From: Planctomycetota bacterium
GTDB lineage: Bacteria; Planctomycetota; UBA11346
Reading direction: 5' to 3'
DNA: 64,000 nucleotides
Assembly: GCA_038318565.1 (NCBI GenBank)
Contig: JBBQCI010000006.1
Coordinates: forward strand, 6,792-70,791
Made by a program: the position numbers and the translations under genes. The notes below the pieces were generated by a model. It was not told the origin of the DNA, made no database searches, and saw nothing but the letters and a program-made list of their open reading frames with translations. This document shows, in pieces, positions 6,584-38,217 of this stretch. Every line of letters begins with the position of its first letter. Position 1 is the stretch's first letter.

Positions 6584-6892
6584 ATGGAACTCCTCGCCTT
6601 CGCCATTTCAATCCCCGGCATCACCGTCCTCCTACTGCTGTGGGTCGTGTGGATACAGCGTCGGCGCAAACTGCTGATCCGACGCATCGAGGAGCATGCT
6701 TGCGCAATCTGCTGCACCGGATTTAGCGATGCCCTGATCGAAGACCGCGGTCCGCCAGCCCCGGCGATCCTTGCCAGACTCGATGTTTTCCAACGCCGCT
6801 TCGCCCATCGAGCGGTGGTCTGCCAGGAATGCGGCGCACTCAATATCTGCGATCGCGACGGCAAGCCGTTCCGGGGTTTCGCAGAGTTCTAG
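6584..6892 (+). CDS. small membrane-anchored protein with CxxCC ... CxxC cysteine pairs (putative zinc ribbon)
   Basis: N-terminal TM helix FAISIPGITVLLLLWVVWI and a basic stop-transfer RRRK, followed by CAICC and CQECG. It starts 16 nt after the permease stop. Its 3' end overlaps the convergent gene by 4 nt. Confidence 0.45.
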   Translation: MELLAFAISIPGITVLLLLWVVWIQRRRKLLIRRIEEHACAICCTGFSDALIEDRGPPAPAILARLDVFQRRFAHRAVVCQECGALNICDRDGKPFRGFAEF

Positions 6893-8253
6893 TCAAGATG
6901 GGCGATGGCCTGGACCAAGCGATGGATGTCCCCAGCTTCATCAGTCGGGATGACGTGCAGACTGAGTTCCTGGTCCAGCCAGATCGCCTCTCCTGGCGCG
7001 ACATCGCAGAGCGGACCGACATGTTCGATCTCGATGATGTCGTCCGCCCGGTAGGTGGTTAGATTGCGATCGCCCTCGGGATACGGGCCAGGTTCATGAG
7101 CGACGATGCGCGATCGCAGGATGTAGTGACCGTCGACCAGTGCCGCAGTCCCGGTAGCTGCGCGCAGTCCGGCCTTCAACCAACGAGTGCCGTGCATGAC
7201 CGCACCATCAAGAACCAAGGCCTCGTCCAACTGGTGGACGCCAAGGATGGCGGTCAGATCACGGGGGCCCTCTGCGCGGTCTTGCACAAACGCGGTGCTC
7301 GGAATCATCGCCGTTGGCATGGCGTCATTGTCCGGGTCGCGCAGCATCACCGTCTTCATGCGCTGCGGTGCCGCCCCGGCCACCAGCGGCCACAGCGCCA
7401 AGCGCCGTTGTGTTGTCGCATGATTGCGCAAACCATGACGGACGAGCAGTTTCCGACGGCGTGGATGCAGACGGACCTCCCACAACAGCTCCAGGCTGGT
7501 CGATGGATCGACGCCGGTGCTCAGGCTGCAGTGGTCAGGACCGCGATCGCTGTAGTGGGCCGGTCGGCAAGCGATCAAGCCCGAATCTTCGTTCTGGCAG
7601 GGTTCCATGAACCAGGTGCGCAGACCGCACGGCTCCCTGGCCGGGGGAGCAAGCATGGCGGGGATCGAGCCATCCACAAAGGCGGTCAGGCGCAGTGAAG
7701 GCTTAGTCTGGATCGTTGCACTTAGTCCATCCGCAACCAGGTCGAAGGACTCGATTCGGTTTGCCTCGACCAGCAGAGCGTCCCGGTCGCGGCCAGGTGC
7801 AGGAGCCACTAAGGCCTCGCTAGCCAACATCACCAGATGCGGCCGAGCGGGCCAGCCACGGGGTGTTCGGCCCGGATGTGCCGGGATGGTGACGACCCCG
7901 GTCTCGCAGTGCCGCGCGTACACCCGGTCTGCCTGATAACGCATCGATCCGCGGAAGGACCACAGCACTCCGTGCGGCAGAGGCTGCCACGTGGAGTCCA
8001 TCGAGGCGTCGCCCATCTGGTGCACCGACAGCAATACCCAGGCAGGCCGATCAAGGCGGAATGTCCAGGTGGCCGTCGGGACCGTCAAATCCTCTAGGAT
8101 AGGCACCAGGCAGGGGAGATCCGCAAGCCCTTCGCTGAACGCCACGATCGTGGTGGCGTACGGAGATTGCAGGCGAGGGATCCCGGTTTGGAACCGCAAC
8201 GCGGTGATGTGGTTCGGTAGATCGAGGGGCACGGGATCGGACGTGACGGCCAT
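6889..8253 (-). CDS. hypothetical protein
   Basis: 454-aa ORF with good GC3 bias and no signal peptide or motif that I recognise. Confidence 0.6.
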   Translation of the reverse strand: MAVTSDPVPLDLPNHITALRFQTGIPRLQSPYATTIVAFSEGLADLPCLVPILEDLTVPTATWTFRLDRPAWVLLSVHQMGDASMDSTWQPLPHGVLWSFRGSMRYQADRVYARHCETGVVTIPAHPGRTPRGWPARPHLVMLASEALVAPAPGRDRDALLVEANRIESFDLVADGLSATIQTKPSLRLTAFVDGSIPAMLAPPAREPCGLRTWFMEPCQNEDSGLIACRPAHYSDRGPDHCSLSTGVDPSTSLELLWEVRLHPRRRKLLVRHGLRNHATTQRRLALWPLVAGAAPQRMKTVMLRDPDNDAMPTAMIPSTAFVQDRAEGPRDLTAILGVHQLDEALVLDGAVMHGTRWLKAGLRAATGTAALVDGHYILRSRIVAHEPGPYPEGDRNLTTYRADDIIEIEHVGPLCDVAPGEAIWLDQELSLHVIPTDEAGDIHRLVQAIAHLD

Positions 8254-8348
8254 GGCGAGGATACATGTATGCTGGAAGCGCTGCGCGCCAGGACGGGTAC
8301 CACACAGGTGATGGTGGATATGTCGGGTGGAATGGTTAGGAAACCCGC

Positions 8349-15109: not shown

Positions 15110-15646
15110 ATGTCGGGACCGGTGCCTGCATCGCGCGGCACCAGACTGCCCGCATATGATCTGCCGGCCGACGCTGCGTACCAACTGCGGCCCATCGGCG
15201 TAGTCAGATCACCGTGGAAAATGCGCACAGAAGCCCCGCGCCAAGGGACGGTGGATCCGCAGGCCCAGGCCTGCATCGTGCTGCGTCCAGGTCTGCAGAA
15301 TACGCTGAAGGATCTGGCTGGCTTCGACCGGCTGTGGGTTCTTGCTTGGTTCCATTGGTCTCGTGGCTGGAATCAGCAGCTGGTGCCGCCGCGCGATACG
15401 GTGAAACGCGGCGTGTTCGCGACGCGCAGTCCCGATCGGCCAAATGCGCTTGGACTGAGCTGCGTTGCCATAGAGCGCGTACATGGCTGCCGGGTGTGGG
15501 TGCGTGGGCACGATCTGCTCGATGGCACGCCGGTGCTGGATCTCAAACCCTACATTTCCGACTACGACGCGTTCCCGGCTGCCGCCCGCGGTTGGTTGGA
15601 CGGCCTCACCGAGCCGGGTCCGGATCACCGCCTGCCGGACGGTTGA
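15110..15646 (+). CDS. trmO: tRNA (N6-threonylcarbamoyladenosine(37)-N6)-methyltransferase TrmO (TsaA/YaeB family)
   Basis: IGVVRSPW, EAPRQG, VFATRSPDRPNALGLS and LDGTPVLDLKPYI motifs of the TsaA-like family. Confidence 0.85.
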   Translation: MSGPVPASRGTRLPAYDLPADAAYQLRPIGVVRSPWKMRTEAPRQGTVDPQAQACIVLRPGLQNTLKDLAGFDRLWVLAWFHWSRGWNQQLVPPRDTVKRGVFATRSPDRPNALGLSCVAIERVHGCRVWVRGHDLLDGTPVLDLKPYISDYDAFPAAARGWLDGLTEPGPDHRLPDG

Positions 15647-17315
15647 GTTCGGCCGCGAGGGCGTCCAGAGCTGCGCCATTGACCGGATTGCGCCGGATGT
15701 GACCGAGGAGATCGGCGGCACGTGCTCGGGCTGCAGCAGCGGCGGCGACCAGCGACGGATCTGCGCTGCCACCAGCAATGCGTCTGCGCGCCAAGATCAA
15801 ACCACCGGCCTCGCCGGGATTGCGTCGGAGATGTGCCGCCAAAGCGGCATCTGACTCGGCAAGTCGACCAAGCCGCCCCAGGCAGCGGGCCCGTCGTTCA
15901 TCAAGGTTGTCGAGTGGGCCAAGCCGCGCGCGTAGCTGGTCCAGTTCGGCGATATCATCCACGGGGCGGCTAGTGAGGCGTGCTGTTGATCGGGTTTCGA
16001 TGCCGACCGGTCCGCCACCATCGGCGGCCAGTTCGCGGACAATCATGGTGGTCAAAGCCAGGGCGCAGACCGCTGGCAAAGCACGGATCCAGGGCGTCAC
16101 GACCATCGGGCGCTGGCTGCCCGCCACTGCCCACGAGAGTCCAGCCAGTACGGCGAGACAGAGCAGTCCGCCGGGCTGCGACAGGTGTGATTCGATCATC
16201 GACAGTACACCCGCGGTGCACCAGCCAGCAAGCAGAGCGGCTACCGCTGGTTCGTCACGTCGATGCCACAGCGGACGCAGGGTTGCCAGCAGGGCCCAGC
16301 CGAGCAGAGCAGCCAATACCAGACCGCCATCGCTGAGAATCTGCAGTGGCTCGCAATGGGCGTGGGCGGCATAGCTGGGAACGGTCAGCCACAAGGCCGC
16401 ATAGGAGGACTGTTCGGGGAGCGTAGCGATGATGGCTGCCGGCCCGTGTCCGATCAGCGCAGCCGCCCCGCTGAGCGATTCGAACGTACCACGCCAGATG
16501 TGTACACGTTGGGCCGAGCCAGCACCAAGACTCGAAGGGTCGGCCCAGCCGAATACCGGCACGAGCCAGGCGATCACCACGGCACTACCTCCGGCGATCA
16601 GCAATGGCCCATGCCAGGCGCGCGGAGCTTTCAGAACCAGCACGCTCGCCAGTGCGGCCAGCCCGCCGAACCACACTGCCCGGCAGGGATCCCCGCCCAG
16701 CCAGCCGCCAGCGAGAATGCCGGCGCATCCAGCGGTGGCGATCGCCCACAGCCACCAGCGCAAGCCACCGTCAGCGAGGAATCTGGACAGACCCAACGCG
16801 ACCAAGGGTAGCGCAGCCCCGACCGCGAAGTTGACGTTGCCGAAGGGCGCTTCGCGGTGGATGCGCAGGATCTCGCCGACTTCATGATATTGGGTCAGGG
16901 CGGTCATCGCCAGGATGCCGGTGCCTGCCAGTCCGGCAGCGGCGATCAGGCGACCGGCATCACCGTGAGCTGCCCATCGAGCGAGGGCAAGGGCGGTGGC
17001 ACAAGCAGCGGCGCGTTCGATCAGCCAGATCGTCCCGGGTTCGCGAACCGGGGCCCACAACAGGGCCACTGCCTGCCAGGCACAGGCCAGCAGCAGGGGA
17101 AACGCGGCGGCCGGCAGCGAGATGGTGCGCACGGCCCAGACCGCAGCGACACTGCCAGCGAGCAGCACGACATCCGCGGAACGGCCGATCTCGATGCCCG
17201 GATGCAAGCCAGCCGCCCACCAATACAGCCAGCAGCACGGGATCAGCAGTAGCGGCAGGCTAGCAATCCACAGGGCCGGACGACCGGGTAACCGGGCGAC
17301 CGGGCCGTCAATCAT
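15606..17315 (-). CDS. polytopic membrane protein, O-antigen ligase/Wzy-like, with C-terminal soluble helical region
   Basis: About 12 hydrophobic segments followed by an Ala/Arg/Leu-rich helical tail. The start ATG at 17315 overlaps the AAA+ stop (ATGA). The 768-aa extended ORF is rejected because it overlaps the AAA+ CDS. The family assignment is tentative. Confidence 0.6.
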   Translation of the reverse strand: MIDGPVARLPGRPALWIASLPLLLIPCCWLYWWAAGLHPGIEIGRSADVVLLAGSVAAVWAVRTISLPAAAFPLLLACAWQAVALLWAPVREPGTIWLIERAAACATALALARWAAHGDAGRLIAAAGLAGTGILAMTALTQYHEVGEILRIHREAPFGNVNFAVGAALPLVALGLSRFLADGGLRWWLWAIATAGCAGILAGGWLGGDPCRAVWFGGLAALASVLVLKAPRAWHGPLLIAGGSAVVIAWLVPVFGWADPSSLGAGSAQRVHIWRGTFESLSGAAALIGHGPAAIIATLPEQSSYAALWLTVPSYAAHAHCEPLQILSDGGLVLAALLGWALLATLRPLWHRRDEPAVAALLAGWCTAGVLSMIESHLSQPGGLLCLAVLAGLSWAVAGSQRPMVVTPWIRALPAVCALALTTMIVRELAADGGGPVGIETRSTARLTSRPVDDIAELDQLRARLGPLDNLDERRARCLGRLGRLAESDAALAAHLRRNPGEAGGLILARRRIAGGSADPSLVAAAAAARARAADLLGHIRRNPVNGAALDALAAELNRPAGGDPDPAR

Positions 17316-18994
17316 CTGAAGCTCTCCGGGACGAAAGCGGCGTCGCTCGCTTCGGCAATCGCGATGTCGATCTGGAATTGCATGGTCTGCTTGGGGACCG
17401 GCGGACGCCAGTCCTTTAGGCAGGATTCCACCGAGGTCAGCGCGTCGGTGTTTTCGACCCGGTGTACACGATAGGCTTTGACCGCGATAGCTTCGGCGGC
17501 GCCCGGCGTCAGCCAGATCGGGATGAGCATCCGCGTTGCCGCGGTCGGTGCGTCTGGCAGTTCGAGGCCGCGGCGTTTGCACAGTGAGCGGATCAGCGCC
17601 CAGCTCTCGTCGGCGTTGGCGGTCGGCAGCAGGGGGATCTTGACGTCGACGCGTCCTGGGCGTTTCAGATCGACTTCGATCAGATCGGGTCGGCTGCTGG
17701 CGAGGATCCACACCGTGCGGCCGCGGTTCTTCGTCTCGCTCATCTCCTGGGCGAGCATCGCGTAGACCCGCCCGCCGATGCCACCGTCGCTGCCGCCCGA
17801 TTCGCGCTTGCCCAGCGACTGGTCGGCCTCGTCGACGAAGACGTAACAGCGCCCGAGCGCGCGGACCAGGCGGAAGATCTTCTCCAGGTTGCCCTCGGTC
17901 GAGCCCACCCACTTGTCGCGGAAGTTCTTCAGCTTGACGACCGGCACGCCGGCTTCACCGGCCAGGCATTCAACTGTGTACGTTTTGCCGGTGCCGACCG
18001 GGCCGCAGATCAGGTACCCCATCGGCAGGGCCTGCAGATCGTCCTGGCGCCACAAGGCGAGGTCCTGGCGCAGCCACGCCTTCACGCGATCCATGCCGGC
18101 GAGATCATCGAGCGTCTTCTTCGATTCGATGAATTCGATAAGGCCGCCGCTGTCGGCCTCGATCAGGCGCTTTTTCACATCGCCCAAGTCGCGCTCGGTG
18201 ATCGGCTCCTGACGATGCTGGCGGGTGCGCACCAGACTGTCCACCGAAGCCAGAGTTGCGCCGGCTAGGGCGCGGGCTGGCCGGGCCAGATCGCTGCCGA
18301 ATGGGGCGAGGGCGAGCGGGCACTTGCGCACCAGTTCGCGCAGCGCCGCTTCGATCCCGGCGGCATCCGGAAGAGGCACCTGGACCACGCGCGCGCGGGG
18401 ATTGGTCGCGACCAGCACGTGCAGGTCAGCGAGCGCTTCGGTGACCAGGAAGGACGCTAGGCTGTGGCCGGAAAGCAGGCCATCGCTGGCCCAATCGCGC
18501 ATCAGCACGGCGACGGCGGCGATGTCTGCACTGCTCCAGCCTTGGGTCGCCGGGGCGACCAGCTGGGCGCCAGAGACGACGAAGGCGACTTGCGGACTCT
18601 TCTGTCCAAGCTGCGCCAGGTTGGCCGTGTAGCGGGCGTAATAGGTCAGCCATTCGATCGCCTGGCGCGGTTGCTTTGGCAGGGTCTGGTCCTGCTTCCA
18701 GTGCGGCCAGGCGGCGAAGGCGTCGCCGCCCTTGGCCACCCGCACGCCGTTGCCGACATCGTACGTCAGCACTACGTCGAAGCGGGCGAGCAGCGCCGAG
18801 GCGATATATTCGATCAGCGTGCCGCTTTCCGAGGAGGTCCCCTTGGGCACCGGGAATCGATCGGCGACATTGCCATGCAGGATGAACTGACTGCACGAGC
18901 CGCTCTCGTAGCCGAGCGCGATCTCCTCGGCCCAGGTCGGACGGGGCTGACGGGGCGAGGCGGCGGGCTGACGTGGAGCAATGGCATCGGTCAT
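17312..18994 (-). CDS. two-domain AAA+ ATPase (classic clade; degenerate N-terminal AAA-like domain plus active C-terminal AAA module; Ycf46-like architecture)
   Basis: Walker A GPVGTGKT, Walker B VFVDEAD and second region of homology SSRPDLIEVDLKRPGRVD. The N-terminal roughly 330 aa carry FILHGNVADRF where a P-loop would sit. Start chosen at MTDAIAP (18994), 22 nt downstream of the preceding stop. Confidence 0.85.
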   Translation of the reverse strand: MTDAIAPRQPAASPRQPRPTWAEEIALGYESGSCSQFILHGNVADRFPVPKGTSSESGTLIEYIASALLARFDVVLTYDVGNGVRVAKGGDAFAAWPHWKQDQTLPKQPRQAIEWLTYYARYTANLAQLGQKSPQVAFVVSGAQLVAPATQGWSSADIAAVAVLMRDWASDGLLSGHSLASFLVTEALADLHVLVATNPRARVVQVPLPDAAGIEAALRELVRKCPLALAPFGSDLARPARALAGATLASVDSLVRTRQHRQEPITERDLGDVKKRLIEADSGGLIEFIESKKTLDDLAGMDRVKAWLRQDLALWRQDDLQALPMGYLICGPVGTGKTYTVECLAGEAGVPVVKLKNFRDKWVGSTEGNLEKIFRLVRALGRCYVFVDEADQSLGKRESGGSDGGIGGRVYAMLAQEMSETKNRGRTVWILASSRPDLIEVDLKRPGRVDVKIPLLPTANADESWALIRSLCKRRGLELPDAPTAATRMLIPIWLTPGAAEAIAVKAYRVHRVENTDALTSVESCLKDWRPPVPKQTMQFQIDIAIAEASDAAFVPESFR

Positions 18995-19016
18995 GGAGCT
19001 GTCCGGGGTCCGGGAG

Positions 19017-19820
19017 TCACTGTGCCACCGGCTTGGCAGCCGGAGCGGAGCGTTCGAGGTCGGCGATGTCAGAGGCGGCGCTGCCGAAATCGAGCAGTCC
19101 CGAGGCCAGTTCGACATCGCTGGCGATGGTCAGCGGCTGCCCCTGGATGGCGACGTTCTCGCGCGCCAGTTCGATCTGCGCCTCGATACGGGCGCGATCG
19201 GCGGCGATTTCGGCGAGATTGCGTGCGCGTTCACCGCGGTTGGCGATACGGCGGGCAAGGATATCGCGAGTGGCGCGCTGGCTATCGCGCACATTCTCGT
19301 TAACCGCTGAGGCGATCTCGCGGTCGAGTACGGCGATGCGGGCGCGGATCGCGTCTTCGGATTCGTCCCATTCACCTGACTGTAGATTCGCCTCGGCGAC
19401 CAGCAGCTTGAGATAGGTCCAGCGCATGCGGGCCAAGGCGTCACGATTCGCCTCCAACGTGAAGGCTTCGGCGTGCGCCTGCTGCTGGAGTTCGAGCACC
19501 CGGGCGCACCCGCTGTCGAGCCGCTTGAGCGCGGCGCGCGCTGGCGGCGACAGCCGGTTGATCAGAGCGAGTTCACGTTCGATGCCATCGGCTGCCGGAG
19601 CGCTCGGTCGAGCGAGGGCATCCGTGACGTTGCGAAAACGTGCGTTGGAGACCAACAGCCACAGATAGCCGACCTCAAGACCAGCGCCGAGAAACCAGAA
19701 TCCGGGGTTGGCGAAGCCGAGGATGCAGAAGCCGGCGAACACCACGACATTGACCGGCACATTGCCAAGTCCCGGGATGGCAGGGCGGGCTAAAAAGGCG
19801 GCCTTGAGATAGCGCCACAT
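19017..19820 (-). CDS. membrane protein with two N-terminal TM helices and a long cytoplasmic coiled coil
   Basis: VNVVVFAGFCILGFANPGFWFLGAGLEVGYLWLLV, followed by about 190 aa of heptad-rich R/E/A/L sequence. It lies between the PspA and AAA+ genes. Confidence 0.65.
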   Translation of the reverse strand: MWRYLKAAFLARPAIPGLGNVPVNVVVFAGFCILGFANPGFWFLGAGLEVGYLWLLVSNARFRNVTDALARPSAPAADGIERELALINRLSPPARAALKRLDSGCARVLELQQQAHAEAFTLEANRDALARMRWTYLKLLVAEANLQSGEWDESEDAIRARIAVLDREIASAVNENVRDSQRATRDILARRIANRGERARNLAEIAADRARIEAQIELARENVAIQGQPLTIASDVELASGLLDFGSAASDIADLERSAPAAKPVAQ

Positions 19821-19884
19821 GCTTAGATTGCGCTGCCCGAGGGCTGTTGGTCAGCGGCGGGCGTGCAGCCGCCAGCCGACAGCC

Positions 19885-20658
19885 TCATCCCATCGACTTC
19901 TGGGCGGGCGCCGGGGCCTGCACCGGCATGTCCGTGGTGTTCGCCTCGGTGGCGACCGGCATAGGGGCGGGTCCGACGGCCAAGCCCTCCTTGGCAGCGA
20001 AGTCGGCGAGGGCCTGGTCGGCCAAGGCCTCTTGCTCGGACTCCTTGATCTTGAATTCATCGGTATTGAGCGAGTCCTTGGCCAGGCGAGCGCGGCCAGC
20101 GGCTTTGTTCCGCTCGTCCTCGACCATCTCCTGCAGGCGGTTGAGGGTGTCACCGCTGCCACCGATGTTGGTGATCATGCCCGAGGCCATCTCGTTGAGC
20201 TCGGCCATCGCCTTCTTCATCTTCATGTCATCGATCGAACTCTTGAGCTGTTCGAGCTTCATCTTGGCCTGCTGCATGGAGACGTCGCGTGCCTTGACCA
20301 GTTCCTTGTAAGTCTTCTCGGCGTCGCCCAGCTGCCGGCGGTTCTCTTCCAACTCGCGCGAGGTGGTCTGCAGGCGCAGGGCGTAATTGCCAGCGGCGGC
20401 CCGGTTATTCGCTTTGAGATGTGCGGTGGCCTTGGCGCGCAGGTCGCGCTCCTCGATCTCCAGCTTGCGCACCTGCGCCATCAGCTTCTCGCACAGGCCG
20501 GCATGACTGGCCAAGCCCTGGTTGAACTGGCCGATCTGCTTGCGCAGATTCTCCTTTTCCACCTCAAGCAGGGCCTCGGGATTGCGTCGTTCGACGCCAC
20601 TGACGAACAGGCTGGCAAAGCCCTTGAAGAGGTTGCCGATGCGGGCGAGAAGGGACAT
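19885..20658 (-). CDS. pspA: PspA/IM30 family protein (ESCRT-III superfamily)
   Basis: N-terminal amphipathic helix MSLLARIGNLFKGF...NPEALLE aligns by eye with E. coli PspA MGIFSRFADIV...EDPQKLV. The rest is continuous coiled coil with a C-terminal acidic/Ala-Pro tail. Start chosen at 20658. Confidence 0.85.
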   Translation of the reverse strand: MSLLARIGNLFKGFASLFVSGVERRNPEALLEVEKENLRKQIGQFNQGLASHAGLCEKLMAQVRKLEIEERDLRAKATAHLKANNRAAAGNYALRLQTTSRELEENRRQLGDAEKTYKELVKARDVSMQQAKMKLEQLKSSIDDMKMKKAMAELNEMASGMITNIGGSGDTLNRLQEMVEDERNKAAGRARLAKDSLNTDEFKIKESEQEALADQALADFAAKEGLAVGPAPMPVATEANTTDMPVQAPAPAQKSMG

Positions 20659-20697
20659 GGGCGGCTCCGGATGGCGACGTCTTAGCGGCATCCCGGG

Positions 20698-20716
20698 CGA
20701 TGGTCAAAGACCATCG
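20698..20716. promoter_or_regulatory. perfect 8-3-8 palindrome in the 76-nt gap upstream of pspA
   Basis: CGATGGTC-AAA-GACCATCG, followed by a second dyad TGACC-n7-GGTCA (20718-20734). It could be an operator or an intercistronic RNA hairpin. Confidence 0.3.
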
Positions 20717-20734
20717 GTGACCGGCCTGTGGTCA

Positions 20735-21922
20735 TCAGCGTCCAACCGCCCGCTGCCACCCGGCCAGGAGATTGCTGATCACCTCGCCGGAGGGGGTCTC
20801 CACCACCTGAGGCAGGTCGATGCGCAGGCCGTACTTGGCCAGCTCGATGAAGGGGCTGCCGGGTTCCTTGATCGGCACAGCAGGATCACCTGGGCGGAAT
20901 CCGTGTTCCAGCGCCTTGCGCTGCGAAGTGGGCGAGAGCAGGAAATCAATGAAACGGCCGGCAGCCGCCCGCTGTTCGGTACTGCTCCACGGGGCGTCGA
21001 TCAGATAGGCCGGGTTATCGCTCCAGGCATTGGGCGAGGGGTAGGTGATGTGCAGATCACCCCAACGGCCCTGGGCATTGCGCAGGTAGTCGATCGCGAC
21101 GCTTTCATAGACGCACAGACCGTCAAATGCTGAGGGTCCCTTGAGCACCATCTCCTTCATCTGCGTACCGGTCGAGCCGGACAGACCTGCGACGCCCTTC
21201 TCGAAGGTGGTCAGCCAGGTCTGGAAACCGGCGTCCATGACTTGGGCCATGCCCAGCGTCCTCGCCTGATGGTAGTCGTGGGTCATCAGCACCAGGGCCA
21301 TTAGGCCGCTGTTGCTCTGGTTCGGATGGGCATGGCCGAACTTCAGAAAGCCCCATTCGGGCTTGCCGGCAAGCCCGGCCCAGCCGGTGGGTTCAGCGAC
21401 CAGTTTGGCGACATCGCGGAAACTTTGGGGCGGCTGCTTGAGGGCCTGGAAGCGTTCAGTCCACCAGACGAAGACCATCGGCGTGAGAGCCAAAGTCTCG
21501 CTGCGGGCGAACGGAGCCTTACTGAACTTGACCTGCCAGTCGGCCGTGAAGTTGGCGCTGTAGAGCGACGAGGCCGGAGCCCAGATGTTCAGCTGCTCAC
21601 CGGCTAGCAGGGCCTGAGCGCCTTCCAGGGAACCTTTCCCCAGGAGATCGACCTGGGTGTTCGGTTCCACTTTGGCGAATTCCTCGACCGCCCACTTCAT
21701 CCAGCGATCCTTCTCGGTGCCGTAGGCAACGGAGATGCGCACAGCAGCTCCGCTGCGCGGTGCTGGTAATCCGGGAGTGGTGGAGGTCGTCGGTGCCGTC
21801 GGTGCCGCTGGTTGCGGCTTCGCGAAGAGCAGTTTCCAGGCCAGGAAGCCGCAGCCAGCCAGGATCAGGAGGATGACCACCTTGCCGAGGAAGGTGGCCT
21901 TGGGGGCGGTGTCGTCAGGCAT
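20735..21922 (-). CDS. membrane-anchored extracytoplasmic solute-binding-protein-like protein (paralog of the N-terminal part of the next gene)
   Basis: N-terminal TM VVILLILAGCGFLAW and a Pro/Thr linker. Motifs VRISVAYGTEKDRW, FGHAHPNQSNSGL and GFRPGDP are shared with 21930-23618. Confidence 0.7.
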   Translation of the reverse strand: MPDDTAPKATFLGKVVILLILAGCGFLAWKLLFAKPQPAAPTAPTTSTTPGLPAPRSGAAVRISVAYGTEKDRWMKWAVEEFAKVEPNTQVDLLGKGSLEGAQALLAGEQLNIWAPASSLYSANFTADWQVKFSKAPFARSETLALTPMVFVWWTERFQALKQPPQSFRDVAKLVAEPTGWAGLAGKPEWGFLKFGHAHPNQSNSGLMALVLMTHDYHQARTLGMAQVMDAGFQTWLTTFEKGVAGLSGSTGTQMKEMVLKGPSAFDGLCVYESVAIDYLRNAQGRWGDLHITYPSPNAWSDNPAYLIDAPWSSTEQRAAAGRFIDFLLSPTSQRKALEHGFRPGDPAVPIKEPGSPFIELAKYGLRIDLPQVVETPSGEVISNLLAGWQRAVGR

Positions 21923-21929
21923 GGGTGTT

Positions 21930-23618
21930 TCAGAAGAACGTGGCGATGTCGCGGAATACTAGGCGGATGTCGCCGGTGCTGCCCTTGTAGGCCTTGGCCT
22001 GGGTCGTCTCACTGATGCGCTTGAGCACATCCCCGGCGGCGTCTTTGCCATAGGCGATGGTGAACACACGGATGGCCCCACCGCTTTCCGGACCTGGGTC
22101 GATCGCAGTCAGCACCTGTTCTAGGCTGGTGCTGCTGGTCGTGTCGGCGCCGTCTGAGAGCACGATCACAGCCTTGATCGAATCCTGGTCCGGATCGGCC
22201 TTCATCGCGGCGACGGCAGCACTGACGGCATCGTAGAGCGCGGTCTTGCCGCCAGCAATCAAGCTGCGCATCTGCGCCTGCCCAGGAGTGCGGATAGCAG
22301 TCAGCAGCTGGTTCTGCCCAAGCCATTGCGGGGTGCTATTGAAGGTCATCAATGAGAGCCGGTCGCCATCGGCGAGCAGACCGATGAACTCGGCGGCACC
22401 GTCGCGGGCAGCGGCGATCTTGCCGTCCTCCTCCATCGAACCGCTGATATCAAGGACCAAAGCGACATGGGCCGGCTTCTTGGCTGAGCGCCACATGGTC
22501 ATCGCGGCCGAGATGACTTCGGCCGGAGGCGTTTCGAGGGTGGTGGACGGTTCCTTGGCGTCGACGCCATGCGCGCTGTCGATCGGGGCGCCGACCGCGA
22601 CATCGACGGCAGCAGGGCGGAAGCCGAAGCGCAGGGCGCTCTCTTGCTGTGGCCGCTCAAGCAGAAAGCGGACATACGCTTCGCAGGCCAGGCGTTCATT
22701 GGCGCCGACCCACGGCCGCTCGACGATGCCGGTCGGATGATCGCTCCAGAAGGTGCCTTCCTTGGGATAGATCGCGACCATTGGGAAAGATGGCTTGGGC
22801 GTTGCCGTGTTCGCTTCGATTACCAGATTTTCATACAGCACAGCGGCGGAGAGGTAGCCGGGCCCACCGGCGGTCATGCGTTTCGCAAAGAATCCGGTCG
22901 AGGAGCCGTAGTGGACGACGGCCCGCTCAATGCCGGTGACAAATGCCACAACGGCCGGTTGCTGGACGTCCTCGACGGTCAAGCCGGTGCGCTTGCCGGC
23001 CCCGGCGTAGGCCTCGGCCAGCAGAGTCTGTAGACCCGAGTTGGAAAACTCGGGATGGGTGTGACCGAAACGGAAGCGGCCCCATTGCGGCTGACCTTTG
23101 GACGCCCAGCCCTGCGGGTCCTTGGCGAGGGTTAGGATATCGGCCCAGCCAAGCCGGGTCTGTGGCCAACCCAGGGCTTCGGCCATCGGCTGCCACATCG
23201 CGATGACCACCGGTGAGAGGACGACACTCTCAGATTTTGACACCAGGTCCTTGCCGGTGGCGGCGCGGCTCTGGGCATTGGCCAAGGTGATGAAGGCAGC
23301 AGAGGCCGGGCTGATCAGATGAGCCTGCTCGCGGCCCGCGAGCACGTCTTCGACCAGTTCTCCGGAACCCTTGGCCACTGTCTGCACGTAGATTGCTTTG
23401 CCGGCGACTTGCACCTTGCGCGCATTGAACTGGGTCGTCGCCGCCTCTAGCCAGGCCTGTTTCTCTGAGCCATAGGCAATGCGGATGGTCAAGGCGTCCG
23501 GCGGGGCCGCCTGGGTACTCGTGGGCGTCGGCTGAGCTTCGTCAGGAGTCGGCCCCGTCCGCGTCCACAGGATACCGACGATGATGGCGATGACGACCAG
23601 GACGATGAAGGTCTTCAT
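21930..23618 (-). CDS. membrane-anchored solute-binding-protein-like domain fused to a C-terminal von Willebrand factor A (vWA) domain
   Basis: TM FIVLVVIAIIVGILW. SBP-like region with IRIAYGSEKQAW, FGHTHPEFSNSGL and FGFRPA. vWA domain with intact MIDAS DISGSM...T...SDGADT. Start chosen at MKTF (23618). Confidence 0.8.
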   Translation of the reverse strand: MKTFIVLVVIAIIVGILWTRTGPTPDEAQPTPTSTQAAPPDALTIRIAYGSEKQAWLEAATTQFNARKVQVAGKAIYVQTVAKGSGELVEDVLAGREQAHLISPASAAFITLANAQSRAATGKDLVSKSESVVLSPVVIAMWQPMAEALGWPQTRLGWADILTLAKDPQGWASKGQPQWGRFRFGHTHPEFSNSGLQTLLAEAYAGAGKRTGLTVEDVQQPAVVAFVTGIERAVVHYGSSTGFFAKRMTAGGPGYLSAAVLYENLVIEANTATPKPSFPMVAIYPKEGTFWSDHPTGIVERPWVGANERLACEAYVRFLLERPQQESALRFGFRPAAVDVAVGAPIDSAHGVDAKEPSTTLETPPAEVISAAMTMWRSAKKPAHVALVLDISGSMEEDGKIAAARDGAAEFIGLLADGDRLSLMTFNSTPQWLGQNQLLTAIRTPGQAQMRSLIAGGKTALYDAVSAAVAAMKADPDQDSIKAVIVLSDGADTTSSTSLEQVLTAIDPGPESGGAIRVFTIAYGKDAAGDVLKRISETTQAKAYKGSTGDIRLVFRDIATFF

Positions 23619-25009: not shown

Positions 25010-25726
25010 TTACTTTCCCGCCTCGTCGAACATGCGAGCCAGCTCCATCAGAACGCCGGCTCCGCTGCCGTTGATAGTGCGTGTGGGGGCGCCCGCGGCG
25101 TCGGCGTGGAAGGCGAATCGGGGCGGCGGAGTCTGGGCCAGCTTAGCCAGGGCATCCATACCCTCGAGTGCGCCGACCTTGGCATGGCTGGGAGCCCCAG
25201 AGATCAGCCAGATTGACGATTCGATCGGCCCGCCGATCAGGTCGAGGCGGCCGCTCTTACCAGTCTGCTGGAAAAACTGCAGCAGTTCCAGCACGCCGCC
25301 CTCGACGATCGCGCCGGTGAAGGCGGCACCTTGGCTGGCCAGGTCATTCAACGAGAATCCGGGCCCCATGGTCTCCTGCGCACTGATCTGAGGCGCCTGC
25401 GCTGACAGCGAACTGGGGTCGCCACCGGGCGGCAACATGTGCAGACGGAAGACCTGGCCGCCAACCTGGATTTGTGAACCATCCTCCAGCTTCACCTGAC
25501 CGGTGATGCGCTGGCTGTTGACGAACGATCCGTTGCGACTGTTGAGATCGGCGAACGACCAACCCTGGCCCTCGGTCCAGCGCAGTTCCGCGTGCCGGCG
25601 TGAAGCCAGAGCGTCCTGGACCGGGATGTCGATGCCATCTTCGCGCCCGAAGACGTAGTTGCGGCCAGGCAGCAGCCGGCGCGCTTGACGGGAGGCGGAA
25701 ACGATGAAGTAGCCTATGGCAGCCAT
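25010..25726 (-). CDS. FHA domain protein with C-terminal DUF4388 (PATAN-like) domain
   Basis: FHA core GRE...SRRHAEL....DLNSRNGSFVN. The C-terminal GVLELLQFFQQTGKSGRLDL is typical of DUF4388. Confidence 0.8.
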   Translation of the reverse strand: MAAIGYFIVSASRQARRLLPGRNYVFGREDGIDIPVQDALASRRHAELRWTEGQGWSFADLNSRNGSFVNSQRITGQVKLEDGSQIQVGGQVFRLHMLPPGGDPSSLSAQAPQISAQETMGPGFSLNDLASQGAAFTGAIVEGGVLELLQFFQQTGKSGRLDLIGGPIESSIWLISGAPSHAKVGALEGMDALAKLAQTPPPRFAFHADAAGAPTRTINGSGAGVLMELARMFDEAGK

Positions 25727-36135: not shown

Positions 36136-38217
36136 ATGGAGGATGACCGCCTCGTTCAGCTAGCGCTCTCGCGCGGCTATGTTTCACAAGATCAGATCGA
36201 TCGCGCCAAGGCCGAGCAGAAGTCGCTGGCTGACCGCGGGATCGATCATGGCGTCTATTTCCTGCTGCAGGACCTGGGCTTTCTCAGTGATGGTGACGCC
36301 CGTGACCTGCGTCGCTCGGTCAGCTCGTCATCGGTTCGTGCCTTGGAAATCGACGGCTTCGTCATCCAGGGGCGCCTGGGCAGTGGCGGCATGGGCGATG
36401 TCTTCCGCGCCGTCCATCCCGATGGCCGTATCTCAGCGGTCAAACTGCTGTCAGCCAAGCTGGCCCGCAGCGAGGAATACGTGCGCCGCTTCCTGCGGGA
36501 AGCCAGGGCGATGCAGCGTTTGTCCCATCCCTACATTGTTGGGGTGCATGGGGCCGGCGAAAGCCTGGGTACTCGCTACATCCTCATGGAACTGGTTGAT
36601 GGTCCCAGCCTCAAGTCGTGGTTGATCGAGAAAGGTAAGCTTGATCCGGCGCACGCCATCCATTTGCTACTGCAGATATCCGAGGCCTTGGCGCATGCCT
36701 GGGGTCACGGCGTGCTGCACCGGGACGTCAAGCCAGCCAATATCCTGCTGGGACCGCCTCGTCCCGGTGTCGCTGAGCCATTCTGCTCCAAGCTCTGCGA
36801 CTTCGGCCTGGCTAGGTTGGGTCCTGACACCGGCGATGCCGACCTGTCGCATGGCGGCCTCACCGGCACCGGGTTGGCTCTGGGCACGCCACACTACATG
36901 AGTCCCGAGCAGGCCAGTGGCGAACATGACGTCGACCAGCGCGCCGACATCTATGGGCTAGGCGCGACCATCTTCCACGCCCTGCTCGGCCAGACCCTGT
37001 ACAGCGGCAAGAGCTCGGCTGTCATCATGTATAAGCAGGTGACCGAGACGGCCGATCTGCAACTGTTGCGCACGGCCAAGATCGACGAGCGATTGGTGTC
37101 GCTGCTCGGCCGCATGCTGGAGAAGCGGCGGGCCCAGCGCATCGGCTCCTGGGACGAGGTGGTCGCAGCCCTGCGTCCGCTAGTGCCGGCCACCGGCTCG
37201 GCTGCCGTCGCGCCGGCAGCGATGCCAACGGCCCAGGTGCCAACCGTTACGGTCCAGCCAGCCCCTTCCCGCCCGCTTCTCAGCGTCCCCACGCCGTTGG
37301 CCGAGCCAATACCGGCCTTCGTGCCGGCGCGGCGCGGGCTGCTGACGCCGCTGGTGATCACGGCAGGGGTGGTCGTTCTAGTGACCATGGCTGCGGTCGG
37401 TTGGTTACTCAGCACATCTGGTGGCGCACCGATCGAGCCAGCCGGTCTTCCGGCTGCACTTGCAGCGTATGCTGCCGCTCCGGAGCCGGGCAGGGTCATC
37501 CTGCTTGCCCCGGGCATCTACTCCGGCCCGCTCCGGCTGGGCACATCCCACCGCGGGCTGCGCCTGCGGGCCTCCGGGGGTGGCGTGGAGATCCGCGCAT
37601 CCGGTGGACCAGCTCTGATCTGTGATCCCGGTCTGATTGATGCGCATCTCGAAGGGATAGTGTTGAACGGAGGCATCGAGACGATCGGTGGCTGTGATCT
37701 GCATCTGACTGCCGTCGAAGTACGGGGCGGCATGACCATCGGTGGTGGCGTGGTAACCGCCGAGCGGATCCGCGTTTCTGAGCGGATTGTGGTGCGTGAT
37801 CGCGGTTCTCTGTCAGTTTCCGCCTCGCAGCTCGATGGAGGACTCGAGGTCGACCGCGCGGATGTCCGCCTGCAACGCCTGGTCATCCGCGGGGTTGTCG
37901 CCGTACGCAATGGTAGCCTGCACGTCGATGGCGTTCGTATCGTCGCTGCTGCGTCTCCTGGCCTTAGCCTGGACCACGCTGCGCTTACCGCCGCAGATCT
38001 CACGATCAGCGCACCAGGCGTCGGCCTAAATGCCCGGGCTAGTGAGGCGACCGAGGTGCGGGGACTCTCCATCGATGGCGCCGGTCCTGCGGTGGTGTGG
38101 AGTGGCGAGCGGCAGCCGACCTGGCACTGGGAACGCTTCGCCCTGGCAACCCCTCCCCAGGGACTGCCAGGACAGGTACCACCCGGCCCTGGCGCCGATC
38201 CGGCCCGTTTGCCATGA
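36136..38217 (+). CDS. Hanks-type serine/threonine protein kinase with TM segment and extracytoplasmic parallel beta-helix-like repeat domain
   Basis: G-loop GRLGSGGMGDV, catalytic Lys in AVKLL, HRDVKPANILL, DFGLA and SPEQ. TM LVITAGVVVLVTMAAVGWLL. The C-terminal about 270 aa contain short G/V/I-rich repeats (GGVEIRASGG, GGIETIGG, GGMTIGGG). Confidence 0.85.
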   Translation: MEDDRLVQLALSRGYVSQDQIDRAKAEQKSLADRGIDHGVYFLLQDLGFLSDGDARDLRRSVSSSSVRALEIDGFVIQGRLGSGGMGDVFRAVHPDGRISAVKLLSAKLARSEEYVRRFLREARAMQRLSHPYIVGVHGAGESLGTRYILMELVDGPSLKSWLIEKGKLDPAHAIHLLLQISEALAHAWGHGVLHRDVKPANILLGPPRPGVAEPFCSKLCDFGLARLGPDTGDADLSHGGLTGTGLALGTPHYMSPEQASGEHDVDQRADIYGLGATIFHALLGQTLYSGKSSAVIMYKQVTETADLQLLRTAKIDERLVSLLGRMLEKRRAQRIGSWDEVVAALRPLVPATGSAAVAPAAMPTAQVPTVTVQPAPSRPLLSVPTPLAEPIPAFVPARRGLLTPLVITAGVVVLVTMAAVGWLLSTSGGAPIEPAGLPAALAAYAAAPEPGRVILLAPGIYSGPLRLGTSHRGLRLRASGGGVEIRASGGPALICDPGLIDAHLEGIVLNGGIETIGGCDLHLTAVEVRGGMTIGGGVVTAERIRVSERIVVRDRGSLSVSASQLDGGLEVDRADVRLQRLVIRGVVAVRNGSLHVDGVRIVAAASPGLSLDHAALTAADLTISAPGVGLNARASEATEVRGLSIDGAGPAVVWSGERQPTWHWERFALATPPQGLPGQVPPGPGADPARLP

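Follow-up and report, generated by a model that had tools for sequence, protein, structure and literature searches.

The stretch of DNA analysed here (the window: 64,000 nucleotides of contig JBBQCI010000006.1 from the Planctomycetota bacterium assembly GCA_038318565.1) carries on its minus strand six co-directional genes, among them one for a PspA/IM30-family protein and one for a tandem AAA+ ATPase, which are the core of the system described below. In transcription order, the group begins with a membrane-anchored fusion of an SBP_bac_11-like solute-binding protein (SBP) to a vWA domain (21930..23618, 562 aa; from the open reading frame (ORF) and Pfam) and its membrane-anchored SBP_bac_11-like paralog without vWA (20735..21922, 395 aa; Pfam), both of which are accessory. 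These are followed by the PspA/IM30-family protein (19885..20658, 257 aa; Pfam PF04012), a member of a distinct and highly conserved subfamily, and by TMCC, a helical protein with two transmembrane (TM) segments (19017..19820, 267 aa) that is family-less, is described here from its AlphaFold2 (AF2) model and represents a frequent third component. The ATPase comes next (full gene 17312-18994; Pfam PF00004 and AF2), and the group ends with a polytopic membrane protein that resembles Wzy_C/O-antigen ligases and is extended at its C-terminus by a soluble part (15606..17315, 569 aa), a lineage-specific add-on.

A preliminary description of this locus, made from the letters of the sequence without database searches, had given six tightly spaced genes on the minus strand with an ATGA overlap. 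The ORF list places all six genes at these coordinates and the junctions, read directly, agree with that description. The gaps measure 7 nt from SBP+vWA to SBP, 76 nt from SBP to PspA, 64 nt from PspA to TMCC and 22 nt from TMCC to AAA+, and the start of the Wzy-like gene overlaps the AAA+ stop via ATGA in a translationally coupled overlap. No terminator-like site was found in any intergenic gap of the six-gene set, which is compatible with co-transcription but does not prove it. The profile matches expected for VWA, PspA_IM30 and AAA were obtained as well (Pfam VWA_2 at 4e-11, 37.5 bits against a cut-off of 33.9, and PF00004 at 3.3e-23, respectively). Likewise in keeping with that description, neither Pfam nor NCBIfam identifies PspB, PspC, PspF or Lia partners, i.e. 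the canonical companions of PspA, among the six genes.

A near-obligate pairing of PspA and AAA+ genes

Conservation of the arrangement was followed in an AAA+-anchored survey of 80 loci, with one genome per species, and two additional metagenome loci (82 loci), in which homologs were found by iterated hidden Markov model searches of all ORFs. The surveyed phyla are Planctomycetota, Verrucomicrobiota, Acidobacteriota, Abditibacteriota, Armatimonadota, Desulfobacterota and Elusimicrobiota. A PspA homolog occurs at 67 of the 82 loci. In every such case it shares the strand of the AAA+ gene and precedes it, mostly by 0-1.5 kb, and an upstream PspA is found in 63 of the 72 loci that have more than 2 kb of upstream sequence. 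Among the carriers of the dyad is a metagenome-assembled genome assigned to Verrucomicrobium spinosum (L074). In the reciprocal test, every PspA-anchored metagenome contig with at least 1.5 kb of downstream sequence carries the AAA+ gene downstream on the same strand (42/42). A lack of conserved co-occurrence of the two genes had been named beforehand as a result that would refute the proposed coupling; the linkage was instead kept in both directions and is near-obligate.

Homologs number in the hundreds to thousands for each of the six genes except the Wzy-like one. The AAA+ family itself counts more than 6,400 proteins matching at E ≤ 1e-10, and its members from other phyla are typically 55-60% identical (56-61% to the window protein in the aligned set). 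Given such abundant homologs for all genes but the Wzy-like one, recurrence of the arrangement across phyla lies far beyond chance, and chance juxtaposition is excluded by the locus surveys. TMCC is present at roughly half of the loci. Three gene orders were seen (PspA-TMCC-AAA, TMCC-PspA-AAA and PspA-AAA-TMCC), and this combination of shuffled order and retained adjacency speaks for a functional rather than merely inherited coupling.

The conserved unit is, however, smaller than the hard-wired six-gene operon of the preliminary description, which did not withstand comparison with the closest relatives of the window. Contig L083, whose AAA+ is 93% identical, is collinear with the window but for a 1.78-kb opposite-strand gene for a Ser/Thr kinase between SBP and PspA (6593-8260, 555 aa). 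The window has just 76 nt at this place (20659-20734), and the best match to the kinase elsewhere in the window is only 34% identical (36352-37014). An 80% relative shows the order kinase-PspA-TMCC-AAA-Wzy_C and is missing the SBP pair. The kinase insertion, the SBP-less relative and the restriction of the Wzy-like gene to close relatives together rule out the six genes as a conserved unit. The conserved core is a gene of one PspA subfamily followed by a gene of one AAA+ family, which TMCC joins in about half of the cases.

The nine AAA+ loci that have ample upstream sequence but no adjacent PspA, examined at the locus only, are L001, L026, L035, L046, L064, L069, L075, L078 and L081, and include a metagenome-assembled genome of Akkermansia muciniphila, Oceaniferula spumae NT6N and Abditibacteriota IAD-21. 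At L001 the AAA+ gene is divergent and sits beside a MacB-like ABC_tran/FtsX pair. Long ORFs in L006, L007 and L048 that could have represented fusions of PspA to AAA+ or to another partner are upstream ORF-extension artefacts in high-GC DNA.

Architecture of the ATPase, PspA and TMCC

As modelled with AF2 (pLDDT, the predicted local distance difference test, of 84), the ATPase is a Cdc48-type tandem of the classic clade with a dead first AAA+ domain (D1) and no N domain. The first domain (~aa 30-285; 18140..18907, minus strand as for all features of this group) retains an AAA-like alpha/beta fold with a lid in the AF2 model, and the motif check finds neither a Walker A motif (the residues at that place are QFILHGNVADR) nor a Walker B motif. 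D1 is degenerate and presumably non-catalytic, and the work would therefore fall to the second domain (D2; ~aa 290-560; 17315..18127). Judged by Pfam and by its motifs, D2 is an intact classic-clade unfoldase module, with Walker A GPVGTGKT, pore loop 1 KWVG, Walker B VFVDEAD and the second region of homology (SRH) SSRPDLIEVDLKRPGRVD, each of which is conserved at 90% or more among 30 homologs. The Walker A and B motifs, the pore-loop residue W362 and the SRH arginines represent invariant unfoldase hallmarks. The earlier assignment to the classic clade, which had been based on GPVGTGKT, VFVDEAD and the SRH, is borne out by the near-invariance of these motifs across the same homologs. Two further features of D2 are conserved. 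The sensor-1 segment (aa 431-436) reads LASSRPD, with a Ser in place of the usual Asn of ATN-RPD that is invariant in the AAA+ family, and the C-terminal end EASDxxFVPxxFR (17315-17380) is invariant or near-invariant across phyla and reminiscent of docking tails such as the HbYX of proteasomal ATPases.

Over its whole length, the AF2 model aligns in ~590 columns to the D1-D2 tandems of Drg1/Afg2 (E 8.7e-19), Rix7, p97, Cdc48 and the mycobacterial MSMEG_0858, and the best matches among PDB sequences are the D2 domains of VAT and Cdc48 (~1e-34). The 60 best PDB sequence matches consist of Cdc48, VAT, p97, Afg2, NVL and Rix7 chains plus FtsH, and none of them is a Vps4, spastin or katanin chain. 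Unlike the proteins of the Cdc48/p97/VAT group, the window ATPase has no double-psi-barrel N domain, as only ~30 residues precede D1, its D1 is without Walker A and B, and its family is dedicated to a PspA neighbourhood. NCBIfam scores follow the same pattern with 66.7 bits for CDC48, 66.2 for FtsH and 36.3 for cell_div_CdvC, although the family cut-offs lie far above these scores (802 for CDC48 and 650 for CdvC). The label Vps4-like, which the preliminary description had used for the module, can stand for this ATPase as an analogy of function at best: Vps4 and CdvC possess an MIT domain and a single AAA cassette, whereas the window protein is an MIT-less tandem of a dead D1 and an intact D2 that resembles Cdc48.

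The PspA homolog of the window matches Pfam PspA_IM30 at 2.4e-9 over profile positions 2-217 of 220, and the family is matched by all 32 aligned subfamily members (best 2.7e-13). Identity of these members to the window protein reaches 52-69% across phyla, and the subfamily is a divergent but tightly constrained branch. The N-terminal amphipathic helix (alpha0) that had been noted before is present as MSLLARIGNLFKGFASLFVSG, as read from the sequence, and the N-terminus is conserved in the subfamily with the consensus MFxRIxNLxRGFFGLFVSG. Beyond the canonical PspA core, the alignment reveals a C-terminal helix EQxALADQALADFAAKEGI (~aa 206-226; 19981..20043) in which E208, A211, A216, L217, A218, A222 and G225 are invariant, and which is a candidate partner-binding element. 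A linker of low complexity and variable length separates this helix from a terminal K-[ST]-M-G(-P) motif (19888..19899), of which K254 and M256 are at least 90% conserved across phyla. This motif is a candidate AAA+ engagement tag, and the succession of helix, flexible linker and terminal motif would be the layout expected of a tail that recruits an AAA+ protein.

TMCC consists of a short N-terminal amphipathic helix, a 2-TM hairpin (~aa 23-58), an all-helical domain and a conserved C-terminal helix (AF2 model with pLDDT 84 and a helix at 246-258). Its topology suggests that the helical domain faces the cytoplasm, and the protein is presumed to be a membrane anchor or adaptor. In the alignment, the C-terminal segment D-x-ELASxLLD...FG...IADLDR (19047..19118) contains the invariant residues L238 and S240 and the near-invariant A239 and G246, and could be an interaction helix. 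The family comprises 1231 clusters at 50% identity, with lengths of ~250-310 aa in the 150 listed, and no Pfam or NCBIfam family was matched. Relationship of TMCC to ESCRT-III/Snf7 or to PspA was sought in several ways and supported by none of them. Pfam remained blank at E ≤ 10 for the window protein and at E ≤ 1 for 35 members, two TMCC alignments compared by hhalign with that of PspA reached a probability of at most 1%, profile searches of PDB sequences gave no support for ESCRT-III, and Foldseek of the AF2 model returned a best E of 0.68, with Vipp1 only at E ~4. Abditibacteriota loci encode an extra coiled-coil protein of 236-240 aa between TMCC and PspA (L002 8412-9134, L072 6536-7246). 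This protein matches no Pfam family and shows no hhalign relation to PspA or TMCC, so that it was rejected as a second copy of either.

Accessory and neighbouring genes

The vWA part of the SBP+vWA protein matches VWA_2 at aa 385-490 and VWA at 2.6e-9, and holds a DISGS motif (LVLDISGSM) of the metal-ion-dependent adhesion site type. Its N-terminal hydrophobic anchor is MKTFIVLVVIAIIVGILW. The second SBP protein matches Pfam SBP_bac_11 at 4.6e-17, and the two proteins are indeed paralogs, as had been proposed (32% identity over 344 aa, E 7e-43). PDB sequences, searched for a clue to the ligand, gave no relatives of the paralog. In Akkermansiaceae, several Acidobacteriota and Phycisphaerae, the SBP+vWA fusion is kept end to end (E ~1e-183) and is immediately followed by SBP-PspA-TMCC-AAA. 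Among loci with room for it, the SBP+vWA/SBP pair directly precedes the dyad in 15 of 22 metagenome (soil-type) loci and in 6 of 57 genome loci. Verrucomicrobiota and Abditibacteriota have a different accessory set, made up of SBP+OmpA, a permease and an ABC ATPase and at some loci joined by a further SBP_bac_11 homolog, and homologs of the SBP paralog are also found in ABC-transporter-type loci of Abditibacteriota. The SBP+vWA/SBP pair is a recurrent accessory and not part of the core.

For the Wzy-like protein, Pfam does return Wzy_C (3.7e-6), but with 27.2 bits the match stays under the cut-off of 31.7. The 80% relative has a Wzy_C gene (precomputed PF04932 match) at the corresponding place, where it overlaps AAA+ by 4 nt. 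In other lineages no homolog adjoins the AAA+ gene (0/82 loci), and the Wzy-like gene is a lineage-specific add-on of close relatives only. Small conserved proteins of ~210, 141, 228 and 193 aa without a Pfam family are encoded downstream of AAA+ on the same strand in Thermoanaerobaculia and other Acidobacteriota, in 10-13 loci each (e.g. L030 11648-12280, L061 11706-12131 and L019 3152-4464). Those of 210 and 141 aa follow directly after AAA+, in the position that the Wzy-like gene takes in the window lineage.

Synteny with annotated relatives identifies the surrounding genes as FHA, PfkB, S4 and TrmO. The TrmO-like gene on the plus strand (15110-15646) runs towards the Wzy-like gene and overlaps its 3' end by 41 nt, an arrangement found also in the 80% relative. 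Upstream of the module, an FHA-domain gene (25010-25726) is present in all three genomes compared. Together with the Ser/Thr kinase inserted in the relative, this gene hints at a phospho-signalling input to the module. The closest named homologs carry the labels Planctomycetes or Planctomycetota bacterium. Two JGI contigs (Ga0105044_10050756, L084; Ga0105046_10022994, L157) encode a PspA that is 100% identical to that of the window and have the same SBP pair upstream, suggesting that those samples contained the organism of the window or a strain very close to it.

Possible roles: remodelling of PspA polymers and alternatives

The pairing of PspA with this type of AAA+ protein has already been spotted by comparative genomics between 2020 and 2024, and the window system is that of Ravi, Anantharaman, Aravind, Gennaro et al. 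(mSystems 2024, PMC11237479). These authors described a 'PspA + inactive-classical-AAA + classical-AAA' dyad, with examples in Clostridium (AEY64321.1), Cand. Handelsmanbacteria (OGG56892.1) and Archangium (AKJ06548.1), accompanied by a membrane-anchored helical 'SIG+TM+Snf7' protein and by solute-binding/ABC genes, and proposed an ATP-dependent remodelling comparable to Snf7/Vps4. The preliminary description had stated that no characterised system of this composition was known. This holds for experiments, as the literature searched contained no experimental work on a PspA-coupled classic AAA+ and no link to Ycf46, but both the association and the Vps4-like hypothesis had been published in that study. 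The window locus shares with the published dyad the adjacency of PspA to a protein with two AAA domains and a dead N-terminal copy, the TM-anchored helical partner and the presence of signal- or TM-anchored periplasmic-binding-protein genes in the operon. It differs in having the SBP_bac_11+vWA fusion and its paralog instead of PBPB+OmpA/ABC transporter genes, and in adding the Wzy-like gene. The 'divergent Snf7' domain that Ravi et al. assign to the TM partner was not recovered in the TMCC family of the window with Pfam, hhalign, PDB profiles or Foldseek, and it is by its operon position that TMCC would belong to the 'SIG+TM+Snf7' family. The present analysis adds figures for how strong the linkage is, the three gene orders, the Cdc48-like architecture of the ATPase and the subfamily-specific tail motif of PspA, while an ESCRT-III fold of the TM partner was not confirmed. 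The window locus itself brings the vWA-fused SBP and the lineage-specific Wzy-like add-on.

Based on these observations, PspA, TMCC and AAA+ could form a cytoplasmic-membrane module in which the ATPase remodels PspA polymers. Such a module would be analogous in function to ESCRT-III/Vps4 but would use a Cdc48-like tandem in place of a Vps4 orthologue, and we put the chances of this reading at about even. It draws on the linkage in both directions (63/72 and 42/42), the occurrence of three gene orders, the high conservation across phyla and the invariant D2 hallmarks, and further on the tail layout of PspA, the cytoplasmic domain predicted for TMCC, the terminator-free gaps with the ATGA overlap and the independent inference by Ravi et al. 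In such a module, PspA would polymerise on the stressed or remodelling cytoplasmic membrane, and TMCC would anchor or nucleate PspA and recruit the ATPase. The AAA+ hexamer might then engage a conserved tail, either the C-terminal helix or K-S-M-G-P motif of PspA or the C-terminal helix of TMCC, and thread it through the KWVG pore loops of D2, so that subunits would be extracted and the polymer turned over or remodelled with ATP. The SBP+vWA and SBP proteins (in other phyla the SBP-OmpA/ABC transporter set) and the Wzy-like protein would act as variable accessories facing the envelope.

Comparison with known systems fits this picture to different degrees. As in the ESCRT-III/Vps4 (CdvB/CdvC) systems of archaea and eukaryotes, the gene for a putative polymer-former of the ESCRT-III superfamily directly precedes that of a classic-clade AAA+ protein which has an SRH and an aromatic residue in its pore loop, and the flexible tail and terminal element of PspA resemble in layout the arrangement of the MIT-interacting motif (MIM) that recruits Vps4. 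With the canonical Psp (PspFABC) and Lia (LiaIH/LiaF) systems the window shares a PspA/IM30 effector with an N-terminal amphipathic helix and a small membrane partner. It lacks, however, PspB, PspC, a sigma54-type PspF and LiaI/LiaF/LiaRS, and its AAA+ is of the classic-clade unfoldase type instead of an NtrC-type activator. A further parallel, compared by description, is found in the haloarchaeal 'Halo_adaptin' loci (PMC10936438), where a PspA-like gene precedes an MIT-less, Cdc48-related Vps4-like ATPase; unlike the window system these loci are archaeal, and their ATPase has a VAT-N-like domain and winged-helix (wH) partners.

Several points weigh against remodelling of PspA by the ATPase. 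The AAA+ protein carries neither an MIT domain, for which Pfam gives no match, nor another known ESCRT-III-binding domain. The subfamily profile of PspA retrieves no solved PspA or Vipp1 chain from the PDB, even at E ≤ 10, and the one indication of an ESCRT-III fold in this subfamily is the Pfam match. TMCC has no detectable ESCRT-III similarity, although long helical hairpins are hard for such methods and homology is to be taken as not shown rather than excluded. About half of the PspA-AAA+ dyads have no detectable TMCC nearby, and 9 of 72 AAA+ loci are without an adjacent PspA, which suggests that the ATPase may have other clients. In E. coli, the relationship between PspA and an AAA+ protein is reversed, as PspA inhibits PspF. 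Gene identities, domain architecture and the linkage of PspA and AAA+ are observed, and it is from these that we infer every physical interaction and the direction of action.

The reversed direction leads to the most serious alternative, which is nevertheless unlikely: PspA, perhaps together with TMCC, could gate or target the ATPase, whose clients would be damaged or mislocalised membrane proteins that are extracted in the manner of Cdc48, Msp1 or FtsH during envelope stress. This would agree with the Cdc48/p97/Drg1-type tandem structure of the ATPase and with CDC48 and FtsH as its best sequence models, with the nine PspA-less loci, and with E. coli PspA as an established AAA+-binding negative regulator (e.g. 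PMC3128695). PspF, however, sits in a different AAA+ clade, that of the sigma54 enhancer-binding proteins, the neighbouring genes include no conserved protease or degradation partner, and the complete linkage seen from the PspA side (42/42), together with the subfamily-specific PspA tail, suits a dedicated client at least equally well.

The recurrence of SBP-family genes beside the dyad, in two architectures across phyla and also noted by Ravi et al., could indicate instead that PspA, TMCC and AAA+ assemble, stabilise or regulate an envelope-spanning complex around the SBPs, with membrane remodelling being secondary. Such a role in envelope or solute handling is improbable given that most dyads of the genome set have no SBP nearby, that the nearest relatives of the window separate or lose the SBP pair, and that Pfam finds no permease or ABC ATPase among the six proteins of the window cluster. 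A role in anti-phage defence, as an AAA+ system resembling IetA/IteA, is effectively refuted. Weak matches to PADLOC IetA (1.8e-9, 35.5 bits) and NCBIfam IteA (4.3e-5, 22.8 bits against a cut-off of 510) exist, but they lie far under the cut-offs and reflect generic similarity of AAA domains. In addition, there is no IetS-like protease partner, and the syntenic housekeeping context in close relatives as well as the 55-69% conservation across phyla are unlike those of defence islands.

The module is a concrete, widespread and testable candidate for the Vps4 role among bacterial PspA proteins, a role that has been discussed as vacant or open. Liu et al. 2021 ask whether any ATPase fills this role for bacterial PspA/Vipp1, a 2025 review states that a Vps4-like ATPase "appears absent in bacteria", and Makarova et al. 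2024 (PMC10936438) describe vps4+ESCRT-III systems as confined to archaea and eukaryotes. If PspA instead regulates the ATPase, the module would represent a new, PspA-controlled route of membrane protein quality control. Perhaps bacteria of at least seven phyla own a true ATP-driven machine of the ESCRT-III type, in which a 2-TM adaptor nucleates PspA polymers and a Cdc48-derived tandem turns them over via a C-terminal tail, as an independent or pre-Vps4-like solution; this wider proposal is tentative, and somewhat doubtful as a whole. If validated, the module would also be relevant to the proposal that loss of one ATPase domain turned a Cdc48-like tandem into Vps4. If the AAA+ protein does remodel PspA, this would contradict review-level statements that deny bacteria a Vps4-type partner for PspA/Vipp1, and ATP-driven membrane remodelling of the ESCRT-III type would extend to bacteria.

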